Shown here: positions 1 through 7,328 of the stretch, in pieces
Numbering within the stretch: position 1 is the first letter of the stretch
Layout: each line of letters begins with the position of its first letter
NCBI GenBank assembly: GCA_963813815.1
Contig: CAWFAD010000008.1
Location: 64,001 to 128,000, forward strand
DNA length: 64,000 nt
Source: an uncultured bacterium
Lineage (GTDB): Bacteria > Krumholzibacteriota > Krumholzibacteriia > Krumholzibacteriales > Krumholzibacteriaceae
Direction of reading: 5' to 3'
Position numbers and translations under genes: made by a program
The notes under the pieces: model-generated
Seen by the model: only the letters and a program-made list of their open reading frames with translations
The model's database searches: none
What the model was told of the DNA's origin: nothing

Positions 1-1082
1 AACGAGGCGAGCCAATGCCCGCCCTCGTAATGCTCGCCCGTCACGGCGCGCACGCCGGACGCGGCGTGGACCGCCGCCGCCGCGCGAAGGGCCGGAATCC
101 GGATATCGTCCGGCGGAAGACCCCGGGCGATCCCCTCGAGCATCCAGGCGCGGCTCAGATTGAGGCCGTCGAGATGGACGAGCTTCCCGTCCGCCGGATC
201 GGTGACGGCGCCCGGCTCGAGCCAGTCGCCCCGGCCGTCGCGGGGGATCCCCGGGAGGAATGATTCGAGCCATTTCGCGTACTCCGACGGCTCGAGGACC
301 CGCCGCACGAGATCCGCCTCGGCAAGACAGGGGGAAAGAAAGTCCTCGCCCGATGGCTCATAGCCGAGAGGCGCATCTCGGTCGCCGAGAAAGAAATCCC
401 TGACGCGCGACTCGATGAGCTCCTCCGCCTTCCGGTCGCCCGAAACGCGGGCCCAGTCGAGCGCGAGCCCGAGGGCGAAGGCCGTCTGGCTGTGCTCCCC
501 CGAGCGAACCGGGCGGGTGAGCTTGGGAAGCCAGCTCCCGAGCCTCTCCATAGCGAGCTTCTCGAGCGGCGCGAGCGCCCTACCCCACTCCGCCGCCCGC
601 GGATCGTCCCATTCCCTGAGCTCCGCGGCGAGCTGCAAAAGCCAGGCGAGGCCGTAGGGCCGCTCGAAAGAAGCGCGGTCCTCGGCGGAGAGATAAGCGA
701 CCTCGGCGGCGATATTGCCGGAGGTCAGGCTTCGGCCCAGCGCTTCGCGGGCGGGCTCGACGAACGGAGCCCCGGGATAGAGACGCGCCAGCCGGACGAG
801 GAGCCAGTGGCCGTGCACGGCGGAATGCCAGTCGTAGCAGCCGCAGAAGGCCGGCGTCAGCCGCCGCGGCGGAAGCGCGTCGGCGTCGCTCGCGAGGGTA
901 TGGGCGATCTTGTTGGGATACTCCTGATGGACGCACTTCATGGCCAGCGCGGCGAAGCGGCCGGCCGCCGCCTCGTCGAGGCGGCGATTGTCCCCGCCCG
1001 CCGGACGAATCGATGACGACCAAAGAACAATTATCGCGACCGCTCCCGCGGCGAGGAGGATCGATGCCCGCGCGATTCCCAT
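1..1082 (-). CDS. DUF2891 family protein (3' end truncated by window edge)
   Basis: Absent from the ORF track because it has no stop in the window. Manual translation from ATG 1082 gives MGIARASILLAAGAVAIIVLW...QEYPNKIAH...PAFCGCYDWHSAVHGHWLL...EHYEGGHWLAS, motifs typical of DUF2891. Confidence 0.85.
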   Translation of the reverse strand, partial: MGIARASILLAAGAVAIIVLWSSSIRPAGGDNRRLDEAAAGRFAALAMKCVHQEYPNKIAHTLASDADALPPRRLTPAFCGCYDWHSAVHGHWLLVRLARLYPGAPFVEPAREALGRSLTSGNIAAEVAYLSAEDRASFERPYGLAWLLQLAAELREWDDPRAAEWGRALAPLEKLAMERLGSWLPKLTRPVRSGEHSQTAFALGLALDWARVSGDRKAEELIESRVRDFFLGDRDAPLGYEPSGEDFLSPCLAEADLVRRVLEPSEYAKWLESFLPGIPRDGRGDWLEPGAVTDPADGKLVHLDGLNLSRAWMLEGIARGLPPDDIRIPALRAAAAVHAASGVRAVTGEHYEGGHWLAS

Positions 1083-1135
1083 GAATGGATAGTAGTCCCA
1101 CGCGGCGGAATAAAATCAAGCGGAGGAAAAGACAA

Positions 1136-1165
1136 TTGACGCGGGAGGGCGTTTTGCTGTACGAT
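1136..1165 (+). promoter_or_regulatory. Putative sigma70 promoter of the oxidoreductase/peptide cassette
   Basis: TTGACG-18 bp-TACGAT in an AT-richer intergenic region. Confidence 0.45.
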
Positions 1166-1292
1166 TTCGCCCGAGCTTGCGAGTTTTTCGAAATCCTAGG
1201 GGTTGCAGTTAGCTCTTATTCCAGACAATGATTTCCTTCGCCATTTCCATGTGGACGAATGCATCCATTTCTTACGCCCGGAGGTGCGGTGA

Positions 1293-1902
1293 ATGCAGGG
1301 TGGCTTGAAACGCATAGCCGTCTTGAGCGTGGTCGTGGTCGTGGTCGTGGCCGTCGCCTACATCCTCGGATCGGCGACCGGCGCTTACCTGAGAGGCGGG
1401 AGCAGAGCAAAATCGAAAATGATGTATCGCAAAGAGGCAGGCCGACACGAGGGCGATGGCCGAGAGCACGGCGGCTGATAAGGTTGGAGCCGTTCTCCCC
1501 AATCATGTTTTCTCCGATCTCGACGGCAATCCCGTCACGCTCGCCGAGGTTCTCACGAAAAAAACGGTGCTGACCGTCTTCTCGGCGAACTGCGATTACT
1601 GCAAGGAAGAGATGGATCTAGTCCTGCGGCTCGCCGAAAACGACGGCGACTGGAAGACATTCGTCTTCATATCGGGCGACAGCACGCAGGCTCTTCGGGC
1701 GATGCGCGACACGCTGGATTCGAGGATGCGAATCCTCTACGACAAGGACTTCAAGTTCGCCTCGTCCTTCTTTGGCTTCGTGCCCTTCCCCTTCACGATC
1801 ATCACGGACAACACGGGAACGGTTCTGGATTTCATGGTTGGCACGCTCGTCGAGAGAGAGATAAAGGACATTCTCGCCTTCAACAGAAAACAGAAGGATT
1901 GA
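1293..1902 (+). CDS. TlpA/redoxin-family thiol-disulfide oxidoreductase with N-terminal membrane anchor (one extra base near 1440 splits it into ORFs 1293-1478 and 1456-1902)
   Basis: LPNHVFSDLDGNPVTL...FSANCDYCKEE CxxC redoxin fold, with the cis-Pro-like segment VPFPFTII. The upstream ORF supplies a TM helix. The span of 610 nt equals 203 codons plus 1. Confidence 0.75.
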
Positions 1903-1966
1903 TCGATGAAATCCGATGGCTCCGGCGTCATGGTACAAGGCTGCAAAGCGGAAGGGAGGTGATTTC

Positions 1967-2218
1967 ATGAAGAGCAATTTCCTGGCGATGTTGGCCCTGG
2001 CGTTTCTTTTTGCATTCGTGTTCTCCTTGGCAATGACATTCGCTGTGGATCTGAAGGCAAAAGATCCCTACTTTTGCGGCGGCTGCTGCTATATCCCGGC
2101 AAAGGTGAGGTGCACCGCGGGATGGGGGCGGCTGATTGACAACAAGTGCGACTGCAGAATAATCATCTGCCCGGCAATCGACCCGCCGTGCAGGTACGTG
2201 TGCCCGGTTTGCGGTTAG
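1967..2218 (+). CDS. Secreted cysteine-rich peptide 1 (83 aa, 10 Cys)
   Basis: Strong SD GGGAGGTG before ATG 1967; hydrophobic signal MKSNFLAMLALAFLFAFVFSLA; core CGGCCYIPAKVRCTAGWGRLIDNKCDCRIIICPAIDPPCRYVCPVCG. Confidence 0.85.
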   Translation: MKSNFLAMLALAFLFAFVFSLAMTFAVDLKAKDPYFCGGCCYIPAKVRCTAGWGRLIDNKCDCRIIICPAIDPPCRYVCPVCG

Positions 2219-2312
2219 CATCTCAATCGACAGCGGCTCACGCCTGACGCCGGAGCCGGAGGATAGAGGGGTCCCATCCGAGAACGCGAAAGACTCGAGG
2301 GGAGGTGATTTC

Positions 2313-2561
2313 ATGAAGCGTTACCTTCCGACAATGCTGGCCCTGCTGTTCCTGTTCGTGTTCGTGTTCTCAGTGGCCGCGGCGATCACCGGAGAGCTGA
2401 CCGCCGCGACGACGTACAAGTGCGGCGCGTGCTGCTACAAGCCGCCGACGACCAATTGCACCGCGGAGTATGGGCAATTGATCACCGGTATGGGCTGCAG
2501 CTGCAACGCCGTCGTGTGCTACCCGACGAAGTGCGTCTTCATCTGCAAGAGCTGCAGCTGA
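2313..2561 (+). CDS. Secreted cysteine-rich peptide 2 (82 aa, 10 Cys), paralog of peptide 1
   Basis: Identical GGGAGGTGATTTCATGAAG initiation region; signal MKRYLPTMLALLFLFVFVFSVA; core CGACCYKPPTTNCTAEYGQLITGMGCSCNAVVCYPTKCVFICKSCS. Confidence 0.85.
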   Translation: MKRYLPTMLALLFLFVFVFSVAAAITGELTAATTYKCGACCYKPPTTNCTAEYGQLITGMGCSCNAVVCYPTKCVFICKSCS

Positions 2562-2586
2562 GAGTTCGCTGCGACGTTCGATCATG

Positions 2587-2638
2587 GGCGGCGCCGGAGC
2601 CCGGCCGATGCGATCGGCCCCAAGGTTCCGGCGCCGCC
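2587..2638 (+). terminator. Long GC-rich stem-loop after the peptide genes (terminator or mRNA stabiliser)
   Basis: GGCGGCGCCGGAGCC pairs with GGTTCCGGCGCCGCC, enclosing an inner stem GGCCGAT/ATCGGCC. No U-tract follows. Confidence 0.55.
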
Positions 2639-2645
2639 GTCTCTC

Positions 2646-3938
2646 ATGGGAGGTTCGCGTACGTTGTTTTCCATTCGCCGGTCCGCCTGCTTCGCGGCCG
2701 CAGCGGCGGCCGCGCTCGCGCTCGCGTGGCGCTCCGAAGCGGCCGCTCAGACCGCGTGCGCCGAGGACTCGCTCCTCCAGGCGGGAGCGTCGAAGGTGTA
2801 CCTCGACCTGCCCGAGAAGTATCACGACTACATCAAGGCCGAGATCCCGTGGGTGAACTACGTTCGGGACCGCCATCTCGCCGACGTACAGATCCTCCTC
2901 ACGAAAGAGACCACGGGAAGCGGGGGCGACGAGTTCACGCTGACGCTCTTCGGGCGCGGCGAGTTCGATGGGGTGAACGACACGCTCGTTTTTTCACTGG
3001 AGCCCTCGTACACGGAGGACGCGGCGCGGAGCGCCATCGTCACGCATCTCGAGCGGGGTCTCGTGCGGTACGTCGAAAAGACGCCGGTCGCGGACTATCT
3101 CGATATTTCCTACACGAGGCGGTCCGCCCCCGAGGCGATGCGGGACCGATGGGATTACTGGGTATTCGCCGTGAGCGCGCAGGGATGGGCGCAGGGAGAG
3201 AAGAGCTACGACAACGCCTATCTCTGGAGCACCGTGAGCGCCGACCGAGTCACCTCGTCGCTCAAGATCGGTCTCGATCTCGGCTCGAGCTATAACGAGA
3301 GCGCTTTCGACGTGGGCGGGGCGACGATCACGAGCATCTCGCGATCGCATTACCTGAGCGGCACCGCCGTCAAGAGCGCCGGGGAACACTGGTCGTACGG
3401 GATCTTCACGGGGCTCAGCTCGTCGTCGTACGGCAATACCGATCTCGAGCTCTACGCGGGCCCCGCGGTCGAGTACAACGTCTTCCCGTACTCCGAGTAC
3501 ACGCGGCGGGAGCTCCGCGTCCTCTACCGCATTCTCTACTATCACGATCGTTATCTGGAAGAAACGATATACGGCTTCACCGAGGAGGACCGCCTCAAGG
3601 AGCGCCTCTCGATCGAGTACGTGGCCAAGGAGCCGTGGGGCTCGATCTCGGCGAGCGTCCTCGGATCCCACTACCTTCATGACTTCGACAAGAACCGGCT
3701 GACCTTCACCTGCGATCTATCCCTGCTCATCGTCCGCGGGCTTTCGCTCACGCTCGCCGGGAGCGCTTCGTTGATCCACGATCTCCTCTCTCCCGCGAAG
3801 GGCGAGGCGAGCACGGAAGAGCTCCTCCTCCGCCAGCAGCTGCTCGACACCCAGTACACCTACTACGTTTCGTTCGGGTTCCAGTACTCGTTCGGCTCGA
3901 TCTACACCAACGTGGTCAATCCGCGCTTCGGGGGCTGA
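2646..3938 (+). CDS. Outer-membrane beta-barrel-type protein, function unknown
   Basis: Signal peptide (AAAAAALALAWRSEAAA); aromatic/Ser-rich amphipathic strands; C-terminus YYVSFGFQYSFGSIYTNVVNPRF. Confidence 0.7.
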   Translation: MGGSRTLFSIRRSACFAAAAAAALALAWRSEAAAQTACAEDSLLQAGASKVYLDLPEKYHDYIKAEIPWVNYVRDRHLADVQILLTKETTGSGGDEFTLTLFGRGEFDGVNDTLVFSLEPSYTEDAARSAIVTHLERGLVRYVEKTPVADYLDISYTRRSAPEAMRDRWDYWVFAVSAQGWAQGEKSYDNAYLWSTVSADRVTSSLKIGLDLGSSYNESAFDVGGATITSISRSHYLSGTAVKSAGEHWSYGIFTGLSSSSYGNTDLELYAGPAVEYNVFPYSEYTRRELRVLYRILYYHDRYLEETIYGFTEEDRLKERLSIEYVAKEPWGSISASVLGSHYLHDFDKNRLTFTCDLSLLIVRGLSLTLAGSASLIHDLLSPAKGEASTEELLLRQQLLDTQYTYYVSFGFQYSFGSIYTNVVNPRFGG

Positions 3939-6764: not shown

Positions 6765-7328
6765 TTACTCTGTCGTTTCGGCCTGCCCGAGGCGCTTGTT
6801 CATGCGCTCCATGATCGTGAGCATGTTCTCCACGCTCTCGCCCATGTTCTTGAAGCTCTCGTTGAGCTGGAACATTTCCTGTTCCATGCGCGGGTCGGAA
6901 ACCATTTCCTTTTTCTGTATCATCTTCTGGAGCTTTTCCATGGACTTTTTCATGTCCTTGGTCATGGTTCCGACCGACTTGTTCAGGCCTTCCATAAGGC
7001 GCAGCTGCTCCCGCACGCGCACCTGATTCCTCTGGGGGTTCTCGGCCATCTCGTTGCCGAGATTGTTGACGCGCAGTTGCAGGCGGTTCGCGTACTCCAT
7101 CATCTCCTGGTTGCGCTTCATCTGCTGCTGCATGAGCTGCTGGTTCTTCTGGAGCATCTGCTGCTGCATCTGTTGCTGCTGCTGTTGCTGCATCTGCTGT
7201 TGCTGCTGCATCTGCTGCTGCATTTGCTGCTGCTGCTGTCCGCCCTGCTGGGCGAAAAGCGCGGTTGCCGCCGCGGCCAGAACGATCGCGACGACAAAGA
7301 CTGCGATGACTGCCTTTGACAGCTTCAC
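6765..7328 (-). CDS. Poly-Gln/Met-rich exported helical protein (187 aa)
   Basis: SD AAGGAGGT then GTG 7328; signal peptide ending ALFA; QQGGQQQQQMQQQMQQQQQMQQQQQQQMQQQM followed by a Met-rich coiled coil. Confidence 0.8.
   Translation of the reverse strand: MKLSKAVIAVFVVAIVLAAAATALFAQQGGQQQQQMQQQMQQQQQMQQQQQQQMQQQMLQKNQQLMQQQMKRNQEMMEYANRLQLRVNNLGNEMAENPQRNQVRVREQLRLMEGLNKSVGTMTKDMKKSMEKLQKMIQKKEMVSDPRMEQEMFQLNESFKNMGESVENMLTIMERMNKRLGQAETTE
7120..7249 (-). repeat. Imperfect CAG/CAA/ATG trinucleotide repeat (polyQ tract)
   Basis: (tgc)n runs on the + strand interrupted by tgt and cat. Confidence 0.9.

Follow-up and report, generated by a model that had tools for sequence, protein, structure and literature searches.

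An undescribed family of cysteine-rich peptides and a neighbouring redoxin gene in a Krumholzibacteriaceae genome

In the sublancin locus, which encodes BdbAB, a peptide gene is linked to a gene of the thioredoxin family, and the product is glycosylated and carries two disulfides. A MauE-dependent path has been proposed in a 2026 preprint as a third bacterial route of disulfide formation (bioRxiv 10.64898/2026.03.05.709764); in the accessible part of that source, two MauE proteins replace DsbB in E. coli, and MauD is the CxxC partner for methylamine dehydrogenase, a protein with six disulfides. The locus compared with such systems here is a cassette at positions 1136 to 2638 of the window, meaning the whole 64,000-nucleotide (nt) stretch that was analysed (positions 64,001 to 128,000, forward strand, of contig CAWFAD010000008.1 in assembly GCA_963813815.1, from an uncultured bacterium of the Krumholzibacteriaceae). 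It consists of a promoter, a gene for a thioredoxin-like oxidoreductase (the redoxin) and two tandem genes for small peptides with ten cysteines each. The peptides form a real, undescribed family set in an already known kind of arrangement, that of a bacteriocin locus with its own oxidoreductase. The reading preferred here, to which a probability of roughly 58% is assigned as a whole chain, is that the peptides would be exported, folded by the redoxin and used as five-disulfide binders in competition or defence.

The peptide family and its cysteines

A preliminary description of the locus, made from the sequence alone, had pointed to two tandem open reading frames of 82 to 83 amino acids (aa) with similar signals and ten cysteines in one framework, and the sequences agree: the two products are 42% identical (E 8e-20), with cysteine spacings of 2,0,7,11,1,4,6,3,2 in peptide 1 and 2,0,7,12,1,4,4,3,2 in peptide 2. 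Both reading frames are real genes under coding constraint. When six gene copies were compared in all 15 pairings, the ratio of nonsynonymous to synonymous differences (pN/pS) stayed under 1 throughout, ranging from 0.35 to 0.76 in the signal and from 0.17 to 0.92 in the mature part, and the ribosome site GGAGGTGATTTC precedes both peptide genes and occurs nowhere else in the genome.

The peptide set examined comprised 36 proteins. Eighteen are close members, made up of 16 of 334 candidates (the window's two and 14 others) and two more from loci; the other 18 are distant members, the short proteins among 24 matches in 1.84 billion representatives. Two long proteins with repeated partial matches (P0020 and P0027, 1341 and 855 aa) were excluded from every count, and alignment A2 omits P0032, P0033 and P0035, which the 36-member cysteine count includes. 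The earlier suggestion of a new family is upheld, as no characterised family was matched: Pfam gave no family at E <= 1 for either window peptide and one chance match (E 0.016) over 32 family members, NCBIfam matched none of 11 peptides, and the open-access literature, mostly in the form of abstracts and listings, yielded no description of the family. The peptides thus constitute an unnamed and undescribed family. Among 560 candidate viral contigs, none held it.

Export is suggested by features recognised with simple rules rather than with SignalP. All 36 peptides have a basic n-region followed by a strong hydrophobic core, 31 of them have a signal-peptidase-like site of the form [VLA]x[AGS] at residues 27-34, and none has a twin-arginine (Tat) motif. 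The Sec-type signals described earlier are thus found throughout the family, and the peptides are likely exported through Sec and cut after residue 31. The divergence of the loops between cysteines, likewise part of the preliminary description, is borne out: across 17 aligned close members the signal core is 81% identical, as against 34-47% pairwise for most inter-cysteine loops. Net charge is +1 to +5 in 17 of 17 close members; in distant members it lies between -6 and +1, from acidic to neutral. In the mature peptides about one residue in five is cysteine; computed masses for peptides 1 and 2 are 5727.8 and 5388.3 Da when reduced and 5717.8 and 5378.3 Da when oxidised.

The distribution of cysteines bears on how these peptides may be stabilised. 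Mature counts are 12 in eight members, 10 in 11, 8 in 12, 6 in four and 7 in one; the count is even in 35 of the 36 peptides and in 8 of the 9 distinct patterns. The two extra cysteines of the 12-cysteine form, one before C1 and one before the CxC, occur together in 8/8 members, 24-26 residues apart, and are absent from all ten close ten-cysteine members. C1 and C7 are both absent in eight 8-cysteine members, the three framework-alignable members that have no C4 also have no C10 (3/3), and one member has neither C9 nor one of the CxC cysteines. Because of the even counts, and because cysteines distant in sequence are gained and lost in pairs, disulfides are favoured over metal sites. The mature peptides are likely five-disulfide mini-proteins, with C1-C7, C4-C10 and C9 with C5 or C6 as the three of the five pairs predicted from covariation and an extra sixth pair predicted for the 12-cysteine members.

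Several observations weigh against this pairing. P0032, with its 7 cysteines, is an exception; P0019, P0026 and P0036 keep the N-terminal extra cysteine without C7 or C9; and the framework accommodates neither P0033 nor P0035. Histidine replaces C4 in two of the three members without it, both with 6 cysteines. Well-supported branches force only one origin of the 12-cysteine form, and since the close members are kin, its extra pair may have arisen once. Finally, in a crude parity test of the genome holding the window, using home-made gene and signal calls without a positive control, even counts were found in 104 of 267 predicted exported proteins and 313 of 710 cytoplasmic ones. The earlier preference for five disulfides over bound metal is thus favoured by parity and by pairwise change, with exceptions, on evidence drawn from sequence.

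A predicted model of mature peptide 2 has three short beta-strands and no helix (predicted local distance difference test, pLDDT, 85; predicted template-modelling score, pTM, 0.58). A fold search with it gave no match at Z >= 2 among 48,161 representative chains, Foldseek returned one row (E 9.7), and a search of PDB sequences with alignment A2 gave only two antibody-leader matches (E 3-5). In view of this the fold is left unassigned, neither a different nor a new fold being shown. Matches of the full-length model (Z <= 2.4) involve the signal helix only and were discounted, and the best scores in a feature atlas (0.80 and 0.79) are leads only, its structure rows having been built on a model with pLDDT 0.43. 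The preliminary assignment of the peptides to knottin- or defensin-like proteins is not supported as a claim of family. The C6-defensin motif, C-X5-12-C-X3-C-X9-10-C-X4-5-C-X-C with six cysteines, differs from the ten cysteines found here with spacings of 2,0,7,11-12,1,4,4-6,3,2, the mature model has no fold match, and the peptides depart from the knottin framework in having an invariant CC at the start of the core and then a CxC.

The redoxin gene, its break and its linkage to the peptides

Directly upstream of the peptides, the preliminary description had placed a membrane-anchored redoxin with a CDYC site. Both parts of this protein are present, with a hydropathy of 3.0 for the anchor segment; they are not one open reading frame in the window, as anchor and CDYC domain sit in different frames of the assembly. 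All 15 close relatives of the redoxin are single proteins of 199-201 aa, anchor included, and residues 1-35/40 of every one of them match the 5' part of the window gene at 44-60% identity. Alignments of these relatives fall mainly into two frames of the window, and 12 of the 15 also match weakly in the third frame, at about 1397-1423. Among contigs of other runs, X1 record 4 and X3 record 8 each have five single bases more than the window within 1395-1479, and X4 record 16 has the first two of them. Adding five bases gives one continuous redoxin frame. Because the relatives are all single proteins and contigs of related strains carry the extra bases, an assembly error is likely, and the gene is probably whole in the living strain. 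With five one-base losses in 85 nt and nothing else decayed, the break would best be explained by a poorly polished stretch of a long-contig assembly.

It is rather unlikely that this copy is instead decaying, with the five missing bases as true mutations and the redoxin dead in the strain, a reading that would concern the copy and not the family. The break is, of course, present in the assembly; no identical reads were found (best share 0.15); and an example of cassette decay is provided by the peptide locus of a second genome (G031; locus L005, on G031:C39). Also weighing against an intact gene, the closest contigs over the break are only 91-92% alike, with no near-identical one covering it, and only one genome assembly was found to contain this redoxin gene, in the split form. 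Decay is harder to reconcile with five separate one-base losses confined to 85 nt, with a following 420 nt free of in-frame stops, with an intact promoter, peptides and stems, and with an assembly of 16 long contigs, presumably typical of long-read assemblies.

The proposal that redoxin and peptides recur side by side is supported, one broken locus excepted. In the metagenome locus L012, an independent contig, a promoter is followed by an unbroken redoxin gene, whose product of about 201 aa is 61% identical in its domain, and then by three peptides; the redoxin continues into two peptide starts in X1 record 4 and into peptide 1 in X3 record 8, and its end is joined to a peptide start in X6 record 17, a weak case of 31 letters. 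A joint at 1880-2301 in X4 (23 letters) was not counted as linkage. Among the loci listed, two further peptide loci extend at least about 1 kb upstream, and of these L012 has the redoxin and G031 does not (1/2). The G031 locus counts against a fixed partnership: one whole peptide and one 5'-truncated peptide lie there behind an unrelated membrane-protein gene, and the redoxin has no match in that genome, which is 84% complete. The truncated copy (L005:2012-2170) is also without the usual stop, as in a decayed cassette, and the downstream neighbour gene of L005 matches that of the metagenome locus L011. At least three loci were found in the metagenome scan, with 33 of 64 parts covered. L011 is identical to L012 over their overlap and does not count as independent, and a third metagenome locus, L013, was dropped as a low-GC (guanine plus cytosine) contig with a chance match to the signal part alone.

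Of 208 genomes of the phylum, 2 encode peptides of the family and 1 has a redoxin match at E <= 1e-8; the 15 other genomes of the genus contain no such peptides. The GC content of the cassette is 56.7%, a value as low being found in 52 of 1767 genome windows, and flanking genes differ between loci. The cassette thus behaves as a self-contained accessory unit that is patchily distributed. Judged by their relatives, redoxin subfamily and peptide family are equally narrow, the redoxin having 15 relatives at E <= 1.3e-47 as against 14 close peptide relatives; that the longest contigs of the peptide and redoxin clusters are equal in size (6875, 1934) is a hint only.

Folding route, role and rival explanations

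How a redoxin might be kept oxidised in these bacteria is suggested by their complement of membrane oxidants. In the host family, DsbB was found in 0/43 and VKOR in 0/43, MauE in 40/43, including the genome holding the window (G000). The CxC site (CGC) of MauE is intact in all 20 MauE loci fetched, and in the same 20 the surrounding motif FDCGCGFG is invariant. In G000, MauE (G000:C8:158866-159887; L084) lies about 92 kb from the cassette on the same contig, directly downstream of a rhodanese-like gene. No DsbA-like protein over the cut-off was found in G000, so the cassette redoxin would supply the missing link from MauE to a substrate that is hard to fold.

In the mechanism proposed, Sec would export both peptides, their signals being cut after residue 31, and the dedicated membrane-anchored redoxin would oxidise or isomerise them into five-disulfide mini-proteins, the direction of its action being a presumption. 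Host MauE would re-oxidise the redoxin in such a relay, and the folded peptides would then act as variable binders against outside targets, in competition or defence. The part of this concerned with the fold and the redoxin is rather probable. The role in competition or defence is the least supported step and, once that part is granted, is about evenly balanced; it is inferred from the rarity of the cassette, its two to three peptide copies, the fixed frame with variable loops and the positive charge, and the low cassette GC was also counted toward a role in conflict. The absence of an immunity gene suggests a target that is absent from the producer.

Against such a role, positive selection is unsupported, pN/pS being 0.17-0.92 in mature pairs with pS near saturation, and the cassette is without an immunity, exporter or receptor gene. 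More specifically, neither a peptidase ATP-binding cassette (ABC) exporter nor an immunity gene was found in the cassette of the window or in the sequence flanking L005; L012 does not extend far enough to judge.

The same cysteines, with their CxxCC, CxC and CxxC motifs, could also hold metal. The peptides would then be periplasmic metal-thiolate proteins resembling metallothioneins, and the redoxin would be a DsbD-fed reductase that frees their thiols, as TlpA does for ScoI and CoxB. This explanation, which is unlikely, draws on the histidine in place of C4 in two 6-cysteine members, on the crude test of exported proteins, which gave no even-cysteine bias, and on the affinities of the redoxin. 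Of the named families, ResA, TlpA and DsbE come closest to it, although their cut-offs are missed by a wide margin (NCBIfam bits of 39-47 against 170, 24-30 against 230 and 22-25 against 123, respectively); ResA in the PDB matches at E 1.5e-7. ResA and TlpA are reductases, and DsbD is present in G000, where DsbB and VKOR were not found; both the affinities and DsbD weigh against an oxidising redoxin. In the accessible part of one account, TlpA reduces copper-binding cysteines ahead of metal loading, and bacterial metallothioneins are cytosolic (PMC7558416). The peptides, all 36 of which have a Sec-type N-terminus by the simple rules, do not share the metallothionein trait of being cytosolic without an export signal. 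A metal role is further opposed by the even counts of 35/36, with 6 and 10 included, by the sequence-distant pairwise gain and loss of cysteines and by the window's mature peptides, which have no histidine. Among the genes adjoining the cassette no metal transporter or regulator was recognised, MauE offers an oxidative route, and the redoxin has C[DE]YC where the other four thioredoxin-fold CxxC proteins of the same type in G000 have CxPC. Should the peptides bind metal, they would be exported metallothionein-like proteins, also unusual.

Disulfide-bonded peptides might alternatively serve as signals, or as periplasmic ligands of the producer's own receptors. Small, exported, strain-variable products encoded without an immunity gene, some of them neutral to acidic among the distant members (-6 to +1), are consistent with this idea. 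It is made quite improbable by the genes around the peptides, as no linked receptor or regulator was found in the window, L012 or L005 and the flanks differ, and by the several diverged paralogues per cassette, which would exceed the need of one signal. It is very improbable that the redoxin cycles the peptides as electron carriers or as buffers of thiols and disulfides in the periplasm, oxygen stress being one possible occasion: their cysteine content and a partner of the AhpC-TSA family, labelled peroxiredoxin at source in 3 of 15 relatives, would suit such a role, but a buffer would need no fixed framework, variable loops or diverged paralogues, the cassette occurs in only 2 of 208 genomes, and the CxxC is thioredoxin-like and not a peroxidatic site.

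If the preferred reading of redoxin-folded binders is right, five or six disulfides within some 50 residues, together with the modular addition of cysteines two at a time and the lack of a fold match, would represent a new natural scaffold. The peptides would also be a possible source of inhibitors or antimicrobials, actifensin, in the accessible part of its description (PMC6989792), having three disulfides. For MauE-dependent disulfide formation, the cassette provides a concrete, testable substrate and partner.

The surroundings of the cassette and its place among described systems

The features of the cassette are collected in Table 1. The promoter that the preliminary description set before the cassette is confirmed at 1136-1165 and kept in L012; the promoter scan found 2 sites against 0.5 expected, and the spacer stretch GGCGTTTTG is common to window and L012. 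A promoter-like site at 2136, inside peptide 1, was taken as chance. In the 5' leader of the cassette, the stretch CCTAGGGG is kept in both loci (window 1196-1203; L012 82-89, approximately). Rfam gave no match at E <= 1 over 900-3000.

Table 1. Features of the peptide-redoxin cassette, in window coordinates
Feature	Position	Strand	Remarks
Sigma-70-like promoter	1136..1165	+	TTGACG-18 nt-TACGAT; same hexamers and spacing in L012
Redoxin gene, 5' part	1293..1478	+	start codon; predicted membrane anchor at about residues 8-26; out of frame near 1396
Stretch without five single bases relative to related strains	1395..1479	+	splits redoxin gene; likely assembly error
Redoxin catalytic domain	1456..1902	+	AhpC-TSA/Redoxin Pfam above cut-off; ResA/TlpA-like; VPFP loop
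CDYC active-site motif	1591..1602	+	CDYC or CEYC in 15/15 relatives
Inverted repeat, 5' arm	1918..1930	+	13 nt perfect; 20 nt at 85% = 1911-1930; same arm in L012
Ribosome-binding site, peptide 1	1955..1966	+	identical to peptide 2 site, 2301-2312
Peptide 1	1967..2218	+	83 aa, with residues 1-31 as predicted signal and a predicted mature part of 52 aa, 10 Cys
Inverted repeat, 3' arm	2245..2257	+	related copies after non-terminal peptide genes in L012 and G031
Peptide 2	2313..2561	+	82 aa, with residues 1-31 as predicted signal and a predicted mature part of 51 aa, 10 Cys
Terminal hairpin	2587..2638	+	left arm is a variant copy of repeat 3' arm

The large hairpin reported to follow the cassette is indeed strong (the fold of 2562-2660 has z -3.28, with 0/200 shuffles as good). 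It has no T-run, as a canonical intrinsic terminator would, and is missing from the output of the terminator scan. At L011:850-880 and L002:1785-1810 (approximately), a GC hairpin with an AT-rich tail lies past the last peptide, without the repeat arm and unlike the window. Peptide 1 is itself enclosed by a 13-nt inverted repeat, an equally good one being found in 1 of 2000 shuffles and in 0 of the 569 further genes that have wide gaps. Both arms recur in L012, the 3' arm being repeated behind its first two peptides. The stem forms in minimum-energy and centroid folds of both loci, with whole-region z values (-0.27 and -0.86) that are not significant. From these two loci we read the repeats as putative processing or stabilising stems for peptide messages; alternatively, they may have originated at the DNA level by duplication. 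A repeat of the repetitive extragenic palindromic (REP) type was rejected, the 13-mer occurring twice in the genome and only around peptide 1. The inverted repeat, the redoxin frameshift, the 12-, 8- and 6-cysteine variants and the presence of MauE without DsbB or VKOR all go beyond the preliminary description.

A broader reading can be put together from these elements, in which bacteria without DsbB and VKOR would carry a conotoxin-like exported library with 3-6 disulfides and a fold outside the PDB, served by a MauE-redoxin relay and with RNA stems raising peptide over enzyme. It is doubtful as a whole, and the long-range stems, which would there cut out or stabilise single-peptide messages, share that doubt.

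Neither flank appears tied to the cassette. Divergent from it lies a DUF2891 gene (PF11199, E 3e-128; window 3-1082, minus strand), a family found in 22 of 41 genomes searched, with no cassette beside it in the other loci fetched; it is split in two pieces in the genus genomes G015:C25 and G010:C153. On the other side, 8 nt past the hairpin, starts the gene for a 430-aa protein (window 2646-3938, plus strand) that neither Pfam nor NCBIfam matches; the pattern of its sequence hints at a barrel of the outer membrane, and it has three matches in G000 and matches in 12 of 15 other genus genomes. Conserved flanks were rejected, as the neighbours of both genes differ among genus relatives, and profile searches of the relatives' DUF2891 and 430-aa loci found no peptide or redoxin of the cassette families. 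Further away (window 6768-7322, minus strand) is encoded a protein with a hydrophobic N-terminus, a long Gln/Met-rich repeat and a predicted coiled region, with no Pfam match over cut-off.

Comparison with described systems places the cassette between several of them. With knottins and conotoxin-like frameworks the peptides have in common a conserved signal, fixed cysteines, variable loops and tandem paralogues; the knottin order C-C-CC-C-C, with its adjacent pair as III-IV, is replaced here by CxxCC-C-CxC-C-C-C-C, in bacterial proteins for which no structural match was found. For the knotted I-IV, II-V, III-VI connectivity of knottins, covariation here provides three of the five pairs. The redoxin resembles ResA, TlpA and DsbE in its N-terminal anchor (split from the domain in the window), AhpC-TSA/Redoxin domain, CxxC and proline loop, and differs from them in having C[DE]YC instead of CxPC, in reaching 47 of the 170 bits for ResA and in belonging to a narrow subfamily tied to peptide genes. 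The linked thioredoxin-fold gene that marks bacteriocin-oxidoreductase loci is present in the window and absent at the G031 locus. Unlike sublancin, the peptides have no tailoring gene in their cassette and five or six predicted disulfides.

Actifensins and laterosporulins, as far as their description is accessible (PMC6989792), are likewise small peptides with a cysteine framework, variable loops and several paralogues per operon; positive charge is found in the close members of the present family. In actifensin there are three disulfides, a C6-defensin motif with an N-terminal helix plus two-stranded sheet, and ABC transporter genes, with no linked redoxin mentioned in the accessible part of that source, whereas the cassette peptides have 10-12 cysteines, other spacings and an all-beta predicted model. 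In the bactofencin A locus, too, a peptide gene is linked to a thioredoxin-family gene thought to aid disulfides, and according to the accessible part of its description (PMC7616364) this system relies on an ABC exporter of the peptidase type together with an immunity protein, where the cassette has a Sec-type signal and neither gene. The system of MauD, MauE and methylamine dehydrogenase's small subunit also has a thioredoxin-fold CxxC protein whose client is small, exported and rich in disulfides, as described in the accessible part of its source (bioRxiv 10.64898/2026.03.05.709764). Two redoxin relatives give weak matches to the MauD profile (E 0.002 and 0.07), under the cut-off. The cassette differs from it in having no gene for a large subunit or MauG and in its substrates, which would be paralogous peptides of 50 aa, and shares with it an intact-CxC MauE, present in G000 too.

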